In this document: in pieces, positions 3,655 to 31,896 of the stretch
How positions within the stretch are numbered: the stretch's first letter is position 1
How the letters are laid out: every line of letters starts with the position of its first letter
IMG/VR virus record: IMGVR_UViG_3300025889_000261
Span: 1-41,313 of that record
DNA from: a virus
Lineage: Duplodnaviria; Caudoviricetes
Length of the DNA stretch: 41,313 bases
Direction: 5' to 3' (one strand)
Translations under genes and position numbers: made by a program
Notes under the pieces: generated by a model
What the model was told of the DNA's origin: nothing
The model's database searches: none
What the model saw: the letters and a program-made list of their open reading frames with translations, nothing else

Positions 3655-5976
3655 TTATAAATTGCCCTCACTTACCCAAGTTCCTGGTGTACCTGATTCA
3701 GTGCAAACCCACGATTTAGGTGATCCAATTACAGGGATAGAATTTATGACCCTGTCTCCCAATAACCATGCCCCAGTTGTAGGCTCGCTACTTAAATAAG
3801 TTACCAAAAAAGAATCTTTAAACTCATAAACTAACCCAGTTGACCAAACTTTAACTTTAATAAGGTCCTGCGTAATATTTAGAGATGATAGTTTTGATCT
3901 TATATCGCCGGGACTAGATTGATTATAGGTATAATAAATACCGTCTTTTAATTCCACATCCGGTTGAGCGTAGCCTGATCCAATTAATGCATAATTACTA
4001 TCCATGGCAAATGATTGGCTATAACAGTTTATAAATGTATTGTCTTTATTTACAATTAAAGTATTATTAGTTATATAACTTAGTGAAAATGGGGTGTTTG
4101 ACGGTGTCGCACCAGAAGTTATGGGAAAATCTGAGTCTCTATAAAAAACATTTCCTATAGAATATAACTTAGAATTTATTCTTAACCCGTTAAAATTATA
4201 AACTAAATTTGAAATAAACTTATTAACAGGATTTCCCCCCTGATCTGATACAGGCTCGGAAACATTATTAAAAGTATTCCCATTTATTATGTTGTACTTA
4301 GAAGTAGCCGCACTTCTAACACCATTCAGTAAATTTATAAATGTGTTTGCCACAACTTGCAATGTTTTATGAGCGGTGTCTGTATATATTCCAGTGTACT
4401 TACGACTATTTATACTCGTATAATCTAAAAAAGAAGGGCTACCAGAGGTATCTTTGTGTATTAGTGTATTTCCAATAACACAAGCGTTTTCACATTTAAA
4501 GTACATCGCATAGGTATAGTCTGCCCTTAAATTATCATCAAATTCAATAACATTATTTGATACAATAACATTCTTCTCAATACCTGATGTGGTTACCCCT
4601 ATTCCTTCCTTACATCCACTTATAGTATTGCCACTTATAATATGAAGTCCATTGGCTGATCCACCAATTTCAATCCCCATTAAAAATCCATATATTGTAT
4701 TGTTAAATGCAACGTTGTTTTCAGATACACCAAAAACAATACCAGAATAATTCCCTTTTAAATTTTTCGCCATTATTGAATTGTTAATTACATGACTATA
4801 CCCAGTCCATAACTCTATTCCCACATCTTCATACGAAACATTATCAATTTCAAATAAATTAGAAATAAAATATAAGTAACATTCTTTTAATCCATCCTTA
4901 CCAATACGGCTTCTTATTCCACAGTCTGAACTTGTTGAAAAAAATTCATTATTTAATATATATATATGATGACAGGTTAAATTATCGCTAGAATCAGTAA
5001 TTCCAAGTGGCCTTTTAGCGGTTTGTACTATGCAATTTTTAACAAAAATAAAATTAGAACCATTCCTAATATCTATAGATTTTCCGTAAGCCGTTCCGGT
5101 TGTAACTATTTTTAGATTTTCTATAGCAACATTTTCCTTATTTGCTATATAAAAGGCTCTAGATAATGATGTGGTTATAACACTTGTATATTTATTAATT
5201 CCTAACAAATAGTTATTTGAATTTATTGTTAAATATGTTGATATTTTATAAGTTCCAGGAGGGAAAACAATTGTGCTACTTCCGTTAAGCGCGTTTTGTA
5301 TTGCCAGGGTATCGTCCGTGATACCATCCCCCTTAGCCCCATAATCCTTAACACTGACATACTCATTTAGTTCAGAATTGGTAAAAAGATTTTCAAAGTT
5401 AGAATAAGCCGTTTCAGCACTAGCCGCCGCACTAGCGGCTAATGTAGCATAACTTTGTGCGCTAGAAATTTCGCTAATAGTAGGTCCTAAAACGAATGCA
5501 TCGGCATCACTATTAATAGCAAGAACCTTATTTGGAGACTCTAAGATATTAGCAGGAATGGTATTACTAAATACACTCGATGAAATTGTTTCAGGAAGTT
5601 TTATAGCCCTATTTATTTCATCCTGCTGCTGTTGGTCAATCATGATCTGACTATCAAATTCATCCTCATGAATTTCAGGGAAAAAAGCCCCTTGTCCGCG
5701 TATGTCCGTTTCTTGCTTTATTTCACGAACACGCCGAATTGTTAGGCTATAGCCAGATGTTAAATTTCCTCCGGTTAGCGTAATAGTCCCAGTTCCGTTC
5801 CCATTTAAAGTAACAGTATAATCTGTCCCTAAAACAAGCGTTGTTTCAATATTATCAGTGTCGCGCTGAGTAATAAAAAGATCATTTGAGCTTAAAACTT
5901 TAAACGTAAAGTCATACGTACTTACACCCCCTGTCCCGATGTAATCTACCCGACTCACAGAGGATAATATAGTCAT
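3655..5976 (-). CDS. Tailspike: T7 gp17-like anchor plus right-handed beta-helix depolymerase
   Basis: N-terminal adaptor 'Y.GTG..STYDFTF..L...DL' and 'FFPEIHEDEFD'; 'VSVKDYGAKGDG.TDDT.AIQ.AL..FPPGTY' pectate-lyase-3 start; Asn-ladder repeats. Confidence 0.9.
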   Translation of the reverse strand: MTILSSVSRVDYIGTGGVSTYDFTFKVLSSNDLFITQRDTDNIETTLVLGTDYTVTLNGNGTGTITLTGGNLTSGYSLTIRRVREIKQETDIRGQGAFFPEIHEDEFDSQIMIDQQQQDEINRAIKLPETISSSVFSNTIPANILESPNKVLAINSDADAFVLGPTISEISSAQSYATLAASAAASAETAYSNFENLFTNSELNEYVSVKDYGAKGDGITDDTLAIQNALNGSSTIVFPPGTYKISTYLTINSNNYLLGINKYTSVITTSLSRAFYIANKENVAIENLKIVTTGTAYGKSIDIRNGSNFIFVKNCIVQTAKRPLGITDSSDNLTCHHIYILNNEFFSTSSDCGIRSRIGKDGLKECYLYFISNLFEIDNVSYEDVGIELWTGYSHVINNSIMAKNLKGNYSGIVFGVSENNVAFNNTIYGFLMGIEIGGSANGLHIISGNTISGCKEGIGVTTSGIEKNVIVSNNVIEFDDNLRADYTYAMYFKCENACVIGNTLIHKDTSGSPSFLDYTSINSRKYTGIYTDTAHKTLQVVANTFINLLNGVRSAATSKYNIINGNTFNNVSEPVSDQGGNPVNKFISNLVYNFNGLRINSKLYSIGNVFYRDSDFPITSGATPSNTPFSLSYITNNTLIVNKDNTFINCYSQSFAMDSNYALIGSGYAQPDVELKDGIYYTYNQSSPGDIRSKLSSLNITQDLIKVKVWSTGLVYEFKDSFLVTYLSSEPTTGAWLLGDRVINSIPVIGSPKSWVCTESGTPGTWVSEGNL

Positions 5977-6026
5977 ATTTTATATACTATACACTTAATG
6001 GCATATATTCATTTGCCAAAAAGTAT
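5977..6026 (-). promoter_or_regulatory. Putative phage late promoter, copy 1
   Basis: ATACTTTTTGGCAAATGAATA-N14-TATAGT-N9-ATG; same motif and geometry as 29339-29388. Confidence 0.7.
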
Positions 6027-24654: not shown

Positions 24655-25641
24655 TTATACTACTCTGGCTTCTGTATCTAACAACGCATCAGTAACGTGA
24701 ATTGGTATACCTCGAAAATCCATAACACGCTTACCATCAACCATGTTATATTCAAGTCCACCGCCTGAAATCACATCGTCTCTTCGTTGCTTATCTAGGC
24801 ATCGTGCGACTGTTCTATTCATATAAATAACTGGTCTTCCAGCACTTAGATTTTCAACTTTGTAAGTCAACTCGATTAATGCATCAATAAGATCTGCGGC
24901 AGATGAATTACTAATTAAATTAGATGTATCAATATTGCAGATACGACCAGCAAATCGCCAATCATGAAGCGCAAGACCGTGTTTCCACTGATACCAATCC
25001 ACATAGGCTCTATAAGTATCACCATTTTCATCTAATACTTCTTGCAATCCCAAGTCTTCGTGTTGTAGCCCCATTTTTGAGCCTTTTGGATAAATTCCAG
25101 AGATTGTATTTGGACCCCAAACTGTAAGCCAAATTGAGGTGTTATTAGATCCGGTGCCTGATGCGTCAATAATATTTCGGGCGTTTTGGGCACTTAATGA
25201 CGAATATCGCACTGATAGGCCATCAAAATACTCTGGATTACTTGGGGATGTAGACGAATAAAACATATTAGTTTCATAAGTGTCTCTTGCAGACTGTACA
25301 AAACCTTCAAATTGAATGCGTCGAAATTTTGCAATATCGCCGTTTAGTTCTGCAATATCTTTATCGACTTTTGAGCGCCCTTCCATAATTGCGATTGTCT
25401 CAGTGATTTGGGCGGTTGACGCTTTACTATCAGGAACCCCTTTGTTTGCGCGTCTGTAATAAAGTGGGGGCAATCCTGTTTGCTGAACAATCATGTGGCC
25501 CGTAGCTAGGTTACCTTCAACTATTGGAATATCATTAAATAATGAGTTTTCGCGACTCATCATTTTAATGATTCTGGATTCTACTGAATTGTCAGGCCCA
25601 CAAGCCTTTGCCCAATCCAGCGCAGTGATAAATTCTGACAT
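24655..25641 (-). CDS. Major capsid protein (BPP-1-like)
   Basis: 'L.DIP..EGN..TGH....TGLP...RR.N.GV..SK', 'F.GL..RY', 'TSIWL..WG', 'DWR...RICNID', 'FRGIPI...DALL.TEARV'; start placed at ATG 25641, 9 nt after AAGGAG. Confidence 0.92.
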   Translation of the reverse strand: MSEFITALDWAKACGPDNSVESRIIKMMSRENSLFNDIPIVEGNLATGHMIVQQTGLPPLYYRRANKGVPDSKASTAQITETIAIMEGRSKVDKDIAELNGDIAKFRRIQFEGFVQSARDTYETNMFYSSTSPSNPEYFDGLSVRYSSLSAQNARNIIDASGTGSNNTSIWLTVWGPNTISGIYPKGSKMGLQHEDLGLQEVLDENGDTYRAYVDWYQWKHGLALHDWRFAGRICNIDTSNLISNSSAADLIDALIELTYKVENLSAGRPVIYMNRTVARCLDKQRRDDVISGGGLEYNMVDGKRVMDFRGIPIHVTDALLDTEARVV

Positions 25642-25642
25642 A

Positions 25643-25720
25643 ATAATAATCTCCTTTTGATTCAAGGAGGCTTATTACGGGAGTAGCTAGAGTGCGTGTC
25701 CTCGTGCGTGCTTGATTATT
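25643..25720 (-). promoter_or_regulatory. Capsid leader: heptamer array plus SD-sequestering hairpin
   Basis: AGCACGC, GACACGC, GCTACTC, GCCTCCT at 12/13/16 nt spacing; GTAATAA-GC-CTCCTT pairs with AAGGAG-A-TTATTAT. Confidence 0.65.
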
Positions 25721-25952
25721 ATTTTTTGTTATGATTCAAGGAAGCTAATGAAGAAGTTATTAACGTGTCATAGCGTGCTTGATTATTTTCTTCTTTATTT
25801 TCGGTCCATTCCATCAAAGATTTAGAAATTGCTTTTGCATGTCTAACTAATGCTTCATGAAAACCGATTTTACTATTTTTAATATTTTTTTTTAAAATTC
25901 CTTTCGCGTGTCTAATTAATGAATCATGAAGACGAATGTCTCTATCGTGCAT
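25719..25952 (-). CDS. 77-aa protein with an internal 23-aa duplication, between scaffold and capsid
   Basis: Start MHDRDIRL after GGTGA; IRLHDSLIRHAKGILK versus IGFHEALVRHAKAISK. Confidence 0.6.
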   Translation of the reverse strand: MHDRDIRLHDSLIRHAKGILKKNIKNSKIGFHEALVRHAKAISKSLMEWTENKEENNQARYDTLITSSLASLNHNKK

Positions 25953-26580
25953 ATTTTTCACCATACAAAATTTGCTCGTCTGTTTTTTCAGTCGACGTAT
26001 TTTGCCCAGGCCGGATAAACGTATCATCAGATATTAGCTTTCCAATTTTAGAACAAAATCGGATAACCTCTGGATGATTACCATATCCAGTTTTTTCCAA
26101 GAAATCTTTGAACTCTTCTGAACCAAATTCATTGATAGCCCGTGAGGCCATTTCCGAATTTTTTACAAAATTAGGGCCTCCAATTTCTTTATCGGCTTGC
26201 GCGTCACTTTTCCACTGCTCGGACATTTTTTCGAAATCCGAAATCTGTGTATTAATATAACGCTGAACTGCTGTATTTTCCCGAGTTACCAGCTCTTGAG
26301 CTTGTTCGTTGGACAATCCTTGCTTTTTGGCAAAGCCTGCAATCTCATCCAAAATTTCCTCGCTGATTAGCGGGTTTTCAGGCAGTTTTAAATCATATAA
26401 AACATCCGGTTTTTGATCGGTGTTTTGCTCAGTTTCTTGCGAATCTGTTTGTTTTTCAGGCTTTTGAATAGCCGATTCAGTAGTTGTATTAGCGTCTGAA
26501 TTATGTACATTGCTTTGTTGCTCCGTAGTTGTTGCTGATGTGCTTGTTGTTTCTGCGGATTCAATTATTTCATCTGTCAT
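25942..26580 (-). CDS. Capsid scaffolding/assembly protein
   Basis: Acidic disordered N-terminus; 'YDLKLPE', 'GLSNEQAQELV', 'D.EIGG', 'TGYGNHPEVIRFC.KIGK.ISDD'. Confidence 0.85.
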   Translation of the reverse strand: MTDEIIESAETTSTSATTTEQQSNVHNSDANTTTESAIQKPEKQTDSQETEQNTDQKPDVLYDLKLPENPLISEEILDEIAGFAKKQGLSNEQAQELVTRENTAVQRYINTQISDFEKMSEQWKSDAQADKEIGGPNFVKNSEMASRAINEFGSEEFKDFLEKTGYGNHPEVIRFCSKIGKLISDDTFIRPGQNTSTEKTDEQILYGEKYAR

Positions 26581-28612: not shown

Positions 28613-28890
28613 GCGCCCAATAACCTTTTTTTACCTGTAACTGAACCTAATTTCTTAGTCAGAATCGTGTCACTTCGGCCATAATTTCCCATCGCTAGTT
28701 GACGCTGTCTCGCTCTCGCCTGATCTCTTTGAACAGTAGATTCTTGTATTCGTTCTTGATTAATAGCATCAGCTTCTAGTTTTTTAGCGTTAGCTTCTTG
28801 TTTTTTACGCTCATTATTTGCATCTTTACGCGTTTGTTCGCTATTATAAATAGAGTATATTGCAGAAGCTGCGGCTATAGTTTCACCCAT
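28609..28890 (-). CDS. Small virion assembly protein preceding the portal
   Basis: 'GR.DTILT...G....K.LLG' C-terminal motif. Confidence 0.7.
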   Translation of the reverse strand: MGETIAAASAIYSIYNSEQTRKDANNERKKQEANAKKLEADAINQERIQESTVQRDQARARQRQLAMGNYGRSDTILTKKLGSVTGKKRLLGA

Positions 28891-29338
28891 TTTTCAATCT
28901 CTTAACTAGTGTTATTTCAGATTCAACATAACCACATTTTTTTAAAAAACTTGTTATATCTAATCTTGTTGTTGAGTGTGTATAAATAAATTCAACTCCA
29001 TTTTTAATTAGTTGTGATTCACAATATTTTAAAAACTTTTTACCATGATTTTTTTTTCTGTAGTCTGGATGAATAAATAGACTATCTGAGCATGCTTGAA
29101 TGAATTGATAATGAGGATTTTTGCTTGTTATATAGATTGAGTAACCCACAAGATTAAGCTCGTCTCTAATTGTATAAATAGAAGTTATGCCGGCTATATC
29201 CAAATTCTTGTACACATTAAAATCAATATTGAGCGGATAATCTTTAAACTGCGCGACTTCGTTATAATGAATCTCCGCAAGTTTCATCACGTCATTTTCA
29301 ACTGAAATAAATGACTCTTGCTGATAAGTAACCGCCAT
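28883..29338 (-). CDS. GNAT-family acetyltransferase
   Basis: 'LVGY', 'D.LFIHPDYRK...GK.F.K..E..L...GV', 'FLKK.GY' motifs. Confidence 0.85.
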   Translation of the reverse strand: MAVTYQQESFISVENDVMKLAEIHYNEVAQFKDYPLNIDFNVYKNLDIAGITSIYTIRDELNLVGYSIYITSKNPHYQFIQACSDSLFIHPDYRKKNHGKKFLKYCESQLIKNGVEFIYTHSTTRLDITSFLKKCGYVESEITLVKRLKNG

Positions 29339-29388
29339 ATTTTCTATACTATAGATTTAAATGTATTTATTCATTTGCCAAAATGTAT
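29339..29388 (-). promoter_or_regulatory. Putative phage late promoter, copy 2
   Basis: ATACATTTTGGCAAATGAATA-N14-TATAGT-N9-ATG; matches 5977-6026. Confidence 0.7.
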
Positions 29389-29393
29389 CAATT

Positions 29394-30851
29394 CTATTTA
29401 AACGGGTCATAGTCTGATACATGCTGAACCCTGTTTGGGATTGTAATATCGCCAATCTTTGGTTTAGATGTTGGCATCTCTTGAAGATAGAATGTTGTTG
29501 CAAGGGCATCCCCAAAGTCAGGACTAAATTGAAGCCGTTTTTTGATCTGCTCTTTTTCTTCTAGTCTAAATTTGCCATCTTGATAATAAAATTGTGGTGA
29601 CGATAACTCGCGTATTAGAACTGGTACATCCGGTAATACCCCGCCTTTCTTGACCCACTCGGCCATTCTGAACCATATTTCAGCCCGAACGTTGTAAAAT
29701 CTTGGATCTTGCGTTGATTTTGAAGCAAAGTTTACTTCAATCGGGACATGACCTGCTTGTATTAATGAATCAACAACACCGGCCCCCCAACCGCCTGTCC
29801 CGTCGATAAATTCACGCTCAGAACCAAACTCGTTTTTCACGTAAGCAACTTTAGCCGCTACTTCATTTGATCTAGCATTTCGCATTTGTGCCGGATTAAA
29901 TGCACGTAGACCCTGGCGAGGAAATATTACTGTAGAATCGTCACCGAATCGCGCCACATCAACTCCTATTCGTTTTTCTGAAAAATTATACTGAGATTCT
30001 ATAATTGATCTGTTCATAGCTTCTTGAATCTCGGTGGGTGAAAGCAACGTATTCAAAGATGAATTTGGAAACTGTCCAAGTATGTAGGACATTACCCACG
30101 GGTTATCGCGCCCATAAGTTTTTATTTGCTCTTTAGCCCATCCGATATCAATACGCTGTGATCTGTTTGGGTCGTCTGGATCTCCGGTAATGCAAATTAC
30201 ATGCCAAAGATGTCTAAGCGTTGAATAAGCGGCGTACAGCATTCCGTCCATAGAAGTTGGGTTGCCTGCCTGAACTATTTTACCGAATCCTTTAGCTTCA
30301 CCTAGGGCCTGTTCGGCTGCTCTTAGTACAGTAGTTGGAATCTCCCCGGATTCATCGATAATAAAAAATACATACTCGCTATGAATGCCCGACAGTGTCG
30401 CGCCCTGTGTGTCGGGGTCCGCGTCTTTCGGCCAGGATCTAGCAGACATAAACCACGTTTCGGGGTGTTGAGAGTTATATATGCGCTCTTTAGTCCATAC
30501 AAATACGGATTTTAAAAAAGGGGAAACATTCATCCATTTTGCAAGTTCTGGCCACAAATTGTCTTTCAAATTGTCCCTAGTAACCGCAATCGCCACGGCC
30601 TTTGGATGCCTGTCTTTATGCCCAAAACATGCTAAAAACCAAAGGCCAGCCCATGCCAATGCGGCGGTTTTACCAGGACCGGCACAGGCGTTTAGTGATA
30701 TACGTTTTTTGATTGGATCATTTGAAGCTAAGGCTTCTAAAAACTGACACTGCCAAAAATCAGGTTCTACTAGAAAATTATCACGTACAAACGAAACCGG
30801 ATCATTTCTCCATTTTCGTATTTTCTCACTGGCCTCCCTAATTAAATGCAT
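29394..30851 (-). CDS. terL: Terminase large subunit
   Basis: Walker A 'ACAGPGKT', Walker B 'FFIIDESG', 'GNP', nuclease 'GVDVARFGDD' and 'SPDFGDALA'; start either 30851 (after AGGA) or 30875. Confidence 0.95.
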   Translation of the reverse strand: MHLIREASEKIRKWRNDPVSFVRDNFLVEPDFWQCQFLEALASNDPIKKRISLNACAGPGKTAALAWAGLWFLACFGHKDRHPKAVAIAVTRDNLKDNLWPELAKWMNVSPFLKSVFVWTKERIYNSQHPETWFMSARSWPKDADPDTQGATLSGIHSEYVFFIIDESGEIPTTVLRAAEQALGEAKGFGKIVQAGNPTSMDGMLYAAYSTLRHLWHVICITGDPDDPNRSQRIDIGWAKEQIKTYGRDNPWVMSYILGQFPNSSLNTLLSPTEIQEAMNRSIIESQYNFSEKRIGVDVARFGDDSTVIFPRQGLRAFNPAQMRNARSNEVAAKVAYVKNEFGSEREFIDGTGGWGAGVVDSLIQAGHVPIEVNFASKSTQDPRFYNVRAEIWFRMAEWVKKGGVLPDVPVLIRELSSPQFYYQDGKFRLEEKEQIKKRLQFSPDFGDALATTFYLQEMPTSKPKIGDITIPNRVQHVSDYDPFK

Positions 30852-30915
30852 ACCGATCCTGTGAAAGAGAGGCATTCTGCGAGGCTAAATTAGCGTGGCT
30901 TTATGCGTGTCTTTA
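30852..30915 (-). promoter_or_regulatory. TerL leader: heptamer array
   Basis: GACACGC (30905-30911), GCCACGC (30893-30899), GCCTCGC (30879-30885), GCCTCTC (30867-30873); spacing 12/14/12. Confidence 0.65.
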
Positions 30916-31134: not shown

Positions 31135-31639
31135 TTTCCCATGACTTTGTTAGAATCTGTTCTAATGTTAGCCCGCCTTCATGTTTCGTAGTAGTTTTGA
31201 ATCCGCCAAGATGAACGCCGAGTTTGTGTAGTGCCGAAATTTTATCAGAAGATTTAAGTTTTACTGTCGTATTTTCGCCCCATTTTGTTGTTTTTGTCTC
31301 GACAACTATTTCAGATATCGCAGCCGAAGCAATGGGGTTTTTTTTGAGTTTCTGGACATCAACAAGCCCGTTATCGTCAACGTAATCAATAATATTGAAA
31401 AACCCAATTTTTGCCATTTCTTGTATAATTTTATCGATATCAAAATCTATTTTCTCCTGAATTTTTTTTCGTTTATTTTCAATATATTCAATTATGTTGG
31501 TATTTGTTAGCAATTTTGACGCAGTGATTCTTGCTGAATTTTTTGAATATCCGGCTAAAATCGCAGCCTCTGTTCCGTTATTTGTTTTAATATAAAAATC
31601 TGCAAACAATTTATTTTTTGGCTTTAATTTACTGTTCAT
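31118..31639 (-). CDS. terS: Terminase small subunit
   Basis: 'LFAD.Y....NGTEAAI.AGYS..SA...AS.LL....I..YI' and 'KISAL.KLG.HLG.F'. Confidence 0.92.
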   Translation of the reverse strand: MNSKLKPKNKLFADFYIKTNNGTEAAILAGYSKNSARITASKLLTNTNIIEYIENKRKKIQEKIDFDIDKIIQEMAKIGFFNIIDYVDDNGLVDVQKLKKNPIASAAISEIVVETKTTKWGENTTVKLKSSDKISALHKLGVHLGGFKTTTKHEGGLTLEQILTKSWENDGNS

Positions 31640-31859
31640 ATCGTCCTAAAATTAATTCTTCTGCTGTCAAATTTATATTTAGTTCACGCGATTTTATTAA
31701 AGCGATCTCTTGTGCGTTTGTCGGAACGAACCCTTTTCTCGTAACCCATTTTCTAACCGCATCCGGTCGATAGCCTAAAATTTTGGCTGTTCTAGTCAAA
31801 CCGCCGAAAGCGATAATAACGCATTCAGCTGGTCTAACTTTTTTAATGGAAGTTGTCAT
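31629..31859 (-). CDS. Cro-like HTH protein heading the packaging operon
   Basis: 'VI.AFGGLT.TAK.LG....AV.KW...G.VP' pattern; start at 31859 fits a leaderless promoter. Confidence 0.7.
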   Translation of the reverse strand: MTTSIKKVRPAECVIIAFGGLTRTAKILGYRPDAVRKWVTRKGFVPTNAQEIALIKSRELNINLTAEELILGRYEQ

Positions 31860-31896
31860 TAGATATATTTTATACATTTTTATAGATAATATTCAA
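31860..31896 (-). promoter_or_regulatory. Putative sigma70 promoter (leaderless) of the packaging operon
   Basis: TTGAAT-N18-TAAAAT-N7-ATG; AT-rich context lowers certainty. Confidence 0.45.

Follow-up and report, generated by a model that had tools for sequence, protein, structure and literature searches.

A micropeptide–RNA cassette upstream of phage capsid and tail genes, a candidate translational switch

The late operon of the window phage and two of its leaders

The DNA analysed here (the window, all 41,313 nucleotides of the IMG/VR record IMGVR_UViG_3300025889_000261) is a complete circular phage contig with a 127-nt terminal repeat, classed under direct terminal repeats. Among public runs, the one that covers it best is a freshwater metagenome, which may be its source. 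It carries integrase and repressor genes and, on the minus strand, a BPP-1-like morphogenesis operon made of terS, terL, portal, a scaffold-type gene, the capsid gene and Bbp16. The major capsid protein (24655..25641, minus strand, 328 aa), product of the candidate regulated gene, is BPP-1-like and matches PF20911 (E 2e-107) and phrog_212. Upstream of it lies the scaffold-type gene (25942..26580, minus strand; phrog_458, annotated as protease), whose scaffold role we infer from its position. The terminase large subunit gene, terL (29394..30851, minus strand; phrog_2), more likely starts at 30851, behind a Shine-Dalgarno sequence (SD) AGGA at 30860-30857, than at 30875, because the SD energy is -4.1 vs +1.3 and because the N-terminal lengths of homologs favour it. 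Elsewhere in the window, a Cro-like 82-aa ORF (31629-31877; weak match to Pfam P22_Cro), first in the late operon and directly ahead of terS, is a possible transcriptional regulator; three 29-nt direct repeats within the replication initiator gene (779-870) have the look of an iteron-like origin; and a 53-nt AT-rich repeat in two copies, 85% identical (5974-6026 and 29336-29388), which end at the start codons of a tail-fibre-type gene (3655-5976) and of an acetyltransferase gene (28883-29338), may be a promoter or leader common to both.

Between the scaffold-type and capsid genes lies a micropeptide gene (25719..25952, minus strand), 77 aa long in the window, with profile matches of E 1.4e-8 and 1.2e-5 to the family described below. 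Its start overlaps the end of the scaffold-type gene, and its tail reads through a first RNA unit. Two copies of the family helix stand in tandem in the protein, a truncated one near residues 7-25 and one without the usual A-W-E near 30-49; both have diverged. AlphaFold places helices at 3-21 and 26-76 (pTM 0.41). Two duplications stand in the window, one of the peptide helix at 69-nt spacing and one of the RNA unit at 67-nt spacing. The window peptide is a divergent duplicate and may be decaying or weakened.

The leader of the capsid gene (25720-25639, minus strand) reads letter by letter as an earlier note on this DNA had quoted it, with an anti-SD CUCCUU at 25669-25664, the SD AAGGAG at 25656-25651 and the AUG at 25641-25639. 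The hairpin proposed there to hide the SD (25639..25678, minus strand), in which GUAAUAA pairs with UUAUUAU and the anti-SD with the SD, is borne out by folding, with z of -4.7 for 25685-25639 and -3.5 for 25725-25639 (0/200 shuffles each). An alternative helix between UCAAG and CUUGA, also suggested there, is the predicted fold once the SD is omitted, and it covaries in relatives. It forms helix P1 (UCAAG 25715-25711, CUUGA 25666-25662) of unit 2 of an RNA element, the candidate capsid switch (25661..25716, minus strand; found by folding, and E 8.6e-9 with an independent covariance model). In unit 2, P1 encloses CAC (25710-25708) opposite CUC (25669-25667), then two G-C pairs, then a nested second such loop with CAC (25698-25696) opposite UAC (25685-25683). 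The heptamer array described in this leader is real as sequence; its members are better taken for paired strands of 3x3 internal loops and not for a linear run of repeats. The capsid SD has a predicted unpaired probability of 0.07 unconstrained vs 0.84 with P1 enforced, at a cost of 5.8 kcal/mol. Unit 1 (25735..25783, minus strand; model E 8e-4), absent from the earlier note, is a degenerate copy 67 nt upstream of unit 2 that falls within the 3'-terminal part of the micropeptide ORF and lacks an SD of its own. The portion 25723-25864 is also present on a contig (X3) from another metagenome run, and contigs from the metagenome runs compared show no sequence variants.

The heptamer array reported before terL is likewise real, and larger than claimed: it is a full double element (30863..30915, minus strand; model E 3e-3), without an adjacent peptide gene, composed of P1 AAAGA/UCUUU, an outer CAC/CUC loop and an inner CAC/CUC hairpin. 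Enforcing its P1 raises the predicted unpaired probability of the terL SD from 0.33 to 0.89 at a cost of 2.2 kcal/mol. Unit 2, unit 1 and the terL element are the only three matches in the genome at E<=2, with a covariance model of 92 non-window sequences that had been aligned with a first model which did include window sequences. A loose 10-mer motif occurs 19 times in the window vs 19.7 expected, not above chance. Peptide-bearing relatives have such sites in 0/6 terL leaders, one of which offered only 12 nt of leader. The suggested coordination of capsid and terminase synthesis looks peculiar to the window phage, the usual targets being tail-tube or capsid genes.

A micropeptide family and an RNA element that occur together

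As a single query against viral contigs the capsid protein gave no match, and an alignment was needed to find relatives. The spacer between scaffold and capsid genes is shorter than about 55 nt in 79/80 of the viral loci listed (80 genome loci were also examined). Six viral loci have a long spacer (L021, L023, L035, L039, L041 and L044, of which L039 and L041 are near-identical); it holds an ORF of 29-41 codons related to the window 77-aa ORF, and the RNA fold is visible by eye in five of the six. Two RNA searches were rejected: the exact window motif had 20 matches in viral contigs, none near a capsid homolog, which we read as chance in coding sequence, and a first RNA pattern had 39, mostly chance, with those at L207 and L212 unsupported by the covariance model.

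The micropeptide family counts 202 profile matches among 50%-identity cluster representatives, mostly of 29-60 aa; several carry tandem helix copies, and two long repetitive matches are noise. A family peptide is modelled by AlphaFold as one helix (pLDDT 95), which is amphipathic. Codon-position entropy of the genes is 0.89/0.58/1.51, and therefore selection acts on the protein; L and H positions that the search did not require are kept in 87/91 and 81/91 peptide loci. The 90%-conserved columns are R, K, A, E and W, with no conserved Cys among them. Under a permissive rule the peptide start lies at or overlaps the stop of the upstream gene in 82/91 loci, that gene being typically a tail terminator (two loci checked) or a scaffold gene. 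There was no Pfam match above cut-off in 16 family members, and for the micropeptide no PHROG family match and no usable match in the ESM Atlas; the best PDB sequence matches had E of only 0.8 and 3.3.

The RNA element folds over ~56 nt, with one 3x3 internal loop nested in another (CAC/CUC between closing G-C and C-G pairs). It is conserved in sequence, with 37-79% GC; the CUCGC/GCCUC strands of the internal loops are conserved and the hairpin loops vary. The two loop strands of class B elements are both GCCUCGC, which makes the site two-fold symmetric. Conservation and covariation in relatives, which the earlier note had set as a test of its idea, were found. Among 56 distinct sequences, 80% of cells are paired and 16/17 pairs show two-sided change; the covariation score is 0.534 vs 0.175 (0/500 shuffles), in a test that is inflated by the relatedness of the sequences. 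Sliding the register by 1-3 columns lowers pairing from 80% to 25-40%. The scanner demanded P1 pairing, so that the 100% of P1 holds by construction; the inner helix, which had no role in selection, shows two-sided change in 9/9 pairs and is 76% paired, and RNAalifold on its own predicts P1 and the G-C pairs. In 39/56 sequences the middle position of the loop is unpaired, and the loop is therefore a true 3x3. The Rfam search that had been asked for gave no family match in the window or in 40 loci: Rfam 15 had 0 matches in the whole window, with two chance matches (E 0.5 and 4) in 25560-26000, 0 in 20 small loci at E<=1 and 0 in 20 more.

Peptide and RNA predict each other's presence. A DNA pattern for the peptide alone found at least 120 viral loci (about 220 estimated), and a strict stem-3x3-GC motif lies within 150 nt downstream of the peptide gene in 64/91 non-redundant loci, seed loci included, against 2.5 in shuffles, 1 on the reverse complement and 4/90 upstream. 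In a held-out metagenome set of 65 loci (120 minus 3 below the profile cut-off, 37 duplicates, 4 too short and 11 redundant), the motif follows 40/65 peptide genes vs 1.8 expected, and a renewed search of the misses added 5 elements among 26 at E<1e-4. In the other direction, a pattern for class B RNA alone retrieved 54 loci, and a peptide lies 2-46 nt upstream in 35 of the 36 that are non-redundant; the sole exception is a second site in a genome carrying the peptide elsewhere, and many of these RNA-first contigs overlap the peptide-first set. Not one of 154 peptide-less capsid loci has a leader that matches the RNA model; among 160 capsid loci the model matches only peptide-bearing ones (L021, L023 and, weakly, L044) and misses L039/L041. 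Peptide genes with no detectable element nearby occur at L035, L232, L234, L260, L317, L431, L451, L462, L488 and others, all of them fragments; five are peptide-only fragments without RNA, for which the scope is that of the fragment DNA.

Some loci have arrangements of their own. In L234, L431, L451, L462 and L488 the peptide gene is wedged before a gene that looks by eye like a capsid gene, with no spacer and no element in the fragment, and in L317, L412 and L514 it is placed after a different, shared upstream gene. L216 has a strong element (4021-4070, minus strand) before an HK97-type capsid gene and no peptide in this 36%-complete record. In L227, L242, L305 and L477 the peptide is followed by a variant leader with altered loop strands GGGCACCC ... 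GCGACCCCGG and weak or no model score, possibly a specificity variant.

Cassettes are found in podo-, sipho- and myo-type morphogenesis operons. A tblastn search of the peptide against 50,697 records of cultured phages returned only chance matches in DNA polymerases, and the cultured relatives PSA-2T and Cruim01 have neither the peptide nor the RNA part. Among bacterial genomes, 3/401 carry the cassette peptide in a Pseudomonas-centred genus sample (around G047), 0/401 in an order sample (around G048) and 0/5 in a further set. The literature outside subscription journals yielded no description of such a cassette; the main text of Weinberg 2017 (PMC5737381) has nothing on such a motif, and the motif strings and contig ids of the cassette are absent from the readable tables of Fremin 2023. 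The peptide–RNA cassette is real, widespread, travels as a pair and is apparently undescribed.

The 43 downstream proteins comprise 31 tail-tube or major tail proteins, 9 capsid proteins of unrelated families and 3 without assignment, and at least seven capsid/tail-tube Pfam families are represented (PF20911, PF05065, PF09950, PF16460, PF08813, PF18906 and PF11681). Since the downstream proteins are non-homologous, no downstream product can be the ligand that all loci share; among phage components only the peptide is common to them, which makes it the candidate factor. Two genomes have one peptide gene and two elements, one of them before the capsid gene: the other precedes, at a distance of 7 kb, the gene following the sheath (PF11681) in G040 and, at 26 kb, a tail-fibre-type gene in G029. 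Other ORFs separate peptide and element in L233, L223, L240, L293 and three genomes of the Pseudomonas-centred genus sample. The second elements without an adjacent peptide (window terL, G040, G029), together with the inserted genes, point to action in trans, as their arrangement suggests for the micropeptide. Second sites are rare (2/40 records, 5 of these re-searched with a better model); only covariance-model matches were counted as such because a loose hairpin motif showed no enrichment genome-wide in peptide-bearing loci. The prophage order tail terminator, peptide, small inserted ORF, element, tail tube (L346-L348, L233, L235 and L280) is the most tractable natural system.

Predicted states of the leader and competing explanations

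Left unconstrained, the predicted ensemble has the SD paired to the motif's 3' strand in 54/59 leaders and in 29/36 held-out leaders, and the unbound state is predicted to be OFF, with the SD paired. The OFF helix is locus-specific beyond generic SD complementarity: native pairings have -12.1 vs -8.9 for crossed ones (33 loci) and -16.3 vs -13.7 (25 loci), with 0/5000 permutations in both classes. Enforcing P1, the ON state, costs a median of 9.2 kcal/mol in the first set and 9.9 in the held-out set. The conserved fold thus lies ~9 kcal/mol uphill, and a binder or stabiliser would therefore be needed; as stabilising the P1 fold frees the SD in prediction, its effect should be activation. The predicted SD opening with P1 enforced is modest (median 0.04 to 0.44, with a gain above 0.2 in 38/60 rows) and nil in several class B loci (L229, L236, L269, L273 and L323). 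Some 9 kcal/mol is much for a 30-mer; nearest-neighbour rules may underrate 3x3 loops, and two sites exist.

The comparison thus establishes a protein-coding gene, a covarying fold, co-occurrence in both directions and a 3' strand complementary to the SD region of its own locus. From these sequences and predicted folds, the cassette is probably a peptide-activated translational switch, in which an upstream micropeptide binds the leader fold and uncovers the SD, acting in trans on high-copy virion genes. The factor is likely to be that micropeptide, the 77-aa ORF in the window. In the unbound leader the 3' strand of the motif would pair with the SD and keep translation of the virion gene off. 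The peptide, presumably a dimer, would bind the conserved 3x3 internal loops, and the bound fold would retain the anti-SD strand inside the P1 fold, leaving the SD free and capsid translation on; in the window phage the peptide would gate terL too. The two-fold symmetric site of class B would suit a dimer of antiparallel helices that display the conserved R, K and G, and the recurring tandem-helix ORFs may be single-chain versions of such a dimer. The start of the peptide gene usually overlaps the stop of a low-copy gene (scaffold, tail terminator), so the peptide would be made in step with that gene and accumulate before the bulk synthesis of the high-copy subunit; the whole might serve as a delay or stoichiometry device for the high-copy shell subunit. 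The factor-dependent, Com-like freeing of the SD envisaged earlier fits the co-occurrence, the covariation and the default-OFF folding, with the correction that the repeats are duplex loops, not single-stranded heptamers.

It is unlikely that the peptide–RNA complex acts instead on transcription, like lambda N on boxB, with read-through of a terminator as its effect and SD pairing secondary. A terminator-like GC hairpin with a U tract does follow class B elements in 19/26, PSA-2T and Cruim01, which lack the cassette, carry one ahead of the homologous tail gene, and the window OFF hairpin is itself listed as terminator-like in our scan; yet class A elements, both window leaders included, show by eye no strong terminator, in the examples inspected the class B hairpin is predicted to form whichever state the leader is in, and the OFF helix is specifically complementary to the SD region of each locus. 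The class B hairpins would leave room for an added transcriptional effect. Quite a low probability goes to the small ORF working in cis, with finishing or stalled ribosomes remodelling the leader and the RNA bound by a host factor or by nothing. The peptide stop usually lies within about 50 nt of P1, and the overlap of start and upstream stop in 82/91 loci would suit this too, but the distance from stop to P1 varies from -16 to +58 nt, C-terminal tails vary, inserted genes separate the parts, second sites without a peptide exist, and the peptide residues are conserved with synonymous variation.

The amphipathic single helix and the peptide genes without an element also suit a peptide that acts as a repressor or serves some other purpose (virion part, membrane activity) beside an RNA that senses temperature, pH or ions, and C-C mismatches can be pH sensitive; this is just as improbable as an action in cis, given that peptide and RNA co-occur in both directions, that only the SD-free fold makes use of the conserved 5' loop strand, whose binder should therefore activate, and that the predicted balance between the folds is nearly constant from 10 to 37 C. 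If a late transcription activator bound the repeats as operators in the DNA, with hairpins arising only incidentally, the recurrence of GCCWCGC as direct repeats at roughly regular spacing would be accounted for; the covariation of the flanking stems, the pairing destroyed by a slid register and a promoter scan of the window no better than shuffles (33 sites vs 40) leave this very improbable. As to type I toxin-antitoxin loci, the comparison shows the RNA 3' of the peptide gene, where it is predicted to pair with the SD of the next gene.

Known analogues and meaning for virion genes

Lambda N is an arginine-rich antiterminator on boxB, and Rop a symmetric helical dimer binding kissing loops. 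The micropeptide would resemble both as a short helical protein reading RNA structure, and Pfam, PHROG and PDB sequence searches gave no match of the peptide to either. A closer comparison is Com of phage Mu, described in PMC6483171 as a 62-aa CCCC zinc finger that controls mom, a DNA-modification gene, and recognises CC(N)2-3GAG within a hairpin loop. Like Com, the cassette has a small phage protein whose gene lies just upstream in the operon and which is predicted to bind a structure beside an inhibitory hairpin and expose start signals; the hiding of downstream start signals by the inhibitory structure is here a prediction, for 54/59 and 29/36 leaders. The cassette peptide differs from Com in being one helix of ~30 aa that lacks conserved cysteines and, in 16 members, any Pfam match above cut-off; its putative site differs from that in mom, with two 3x3 internal loops of CUCGC/GCCUC strands in place of a hairpin-loop CC(N)2-3GAG, and 40/43 targets are tail or capsid genes instead of a DNA-modification gene. 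On the best reading, the cassette would work like Mu Com/mom and yet be unrelated to it. Passages of PMC2661086 describe Orf1 of the Lactococcus phage bIL66 as a translation activator that binds a stem-loop near the RBS, in its own operon and other mRNAs, at weak AU-rich hairpins without conserved sequence, with an endonuclease operon as target; the cassette would share with it a phage protein activating translation at an RBS-proximal structure, and differs in its sequence-conserved element. Finally, table rows of Fremin et al. 2023 (PMC10690425) hold two 48-53-nt RNA candidates just upstream of Phage_TTP_11 genes, DNAVirus_5707 and DNAVirus_8644, the latter flagged as terminator, and these rows give no function or peptide partner. 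Phage_TTP_11 is also a target family of the cassette, and, as far as the table rows go, these candidates could overlap with class B.

A wider reading, which we put forward tentatively and at somewhat under an even chance, is a portable, riboswitch-like module whose ligand would be a ~30-residue helix. Produced one-for-one with a low-copy assembly gene, the peptide would dimerise on two symmetric C-rich 3x3 loops and, above a threshold, switch on the capsid or tail-tube gene of high copy number, with terminase, tail tube and tail fibre as a small regulon in some phages. The excess of capsid or tube subunits, in the hundreds, over a few copies of their neighbours on the same mRNA, and their timing, are usually ascribed to SD strength and promoters. 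If the module reading is true, phages would have in the cassette a translation-level device of general use that times virion assembly and counts its stoichiometry, and peptide-RNA recognition would gain a new, minimal code. At less than 250 nt, the pair would also offer synthetic biology an orthogonal ON switch for translation that is very compact. An activator–leader pair before at least seven Pfam families would add to virion genes a regulatory layer that annotation has missed because the gene is about 100 nt.
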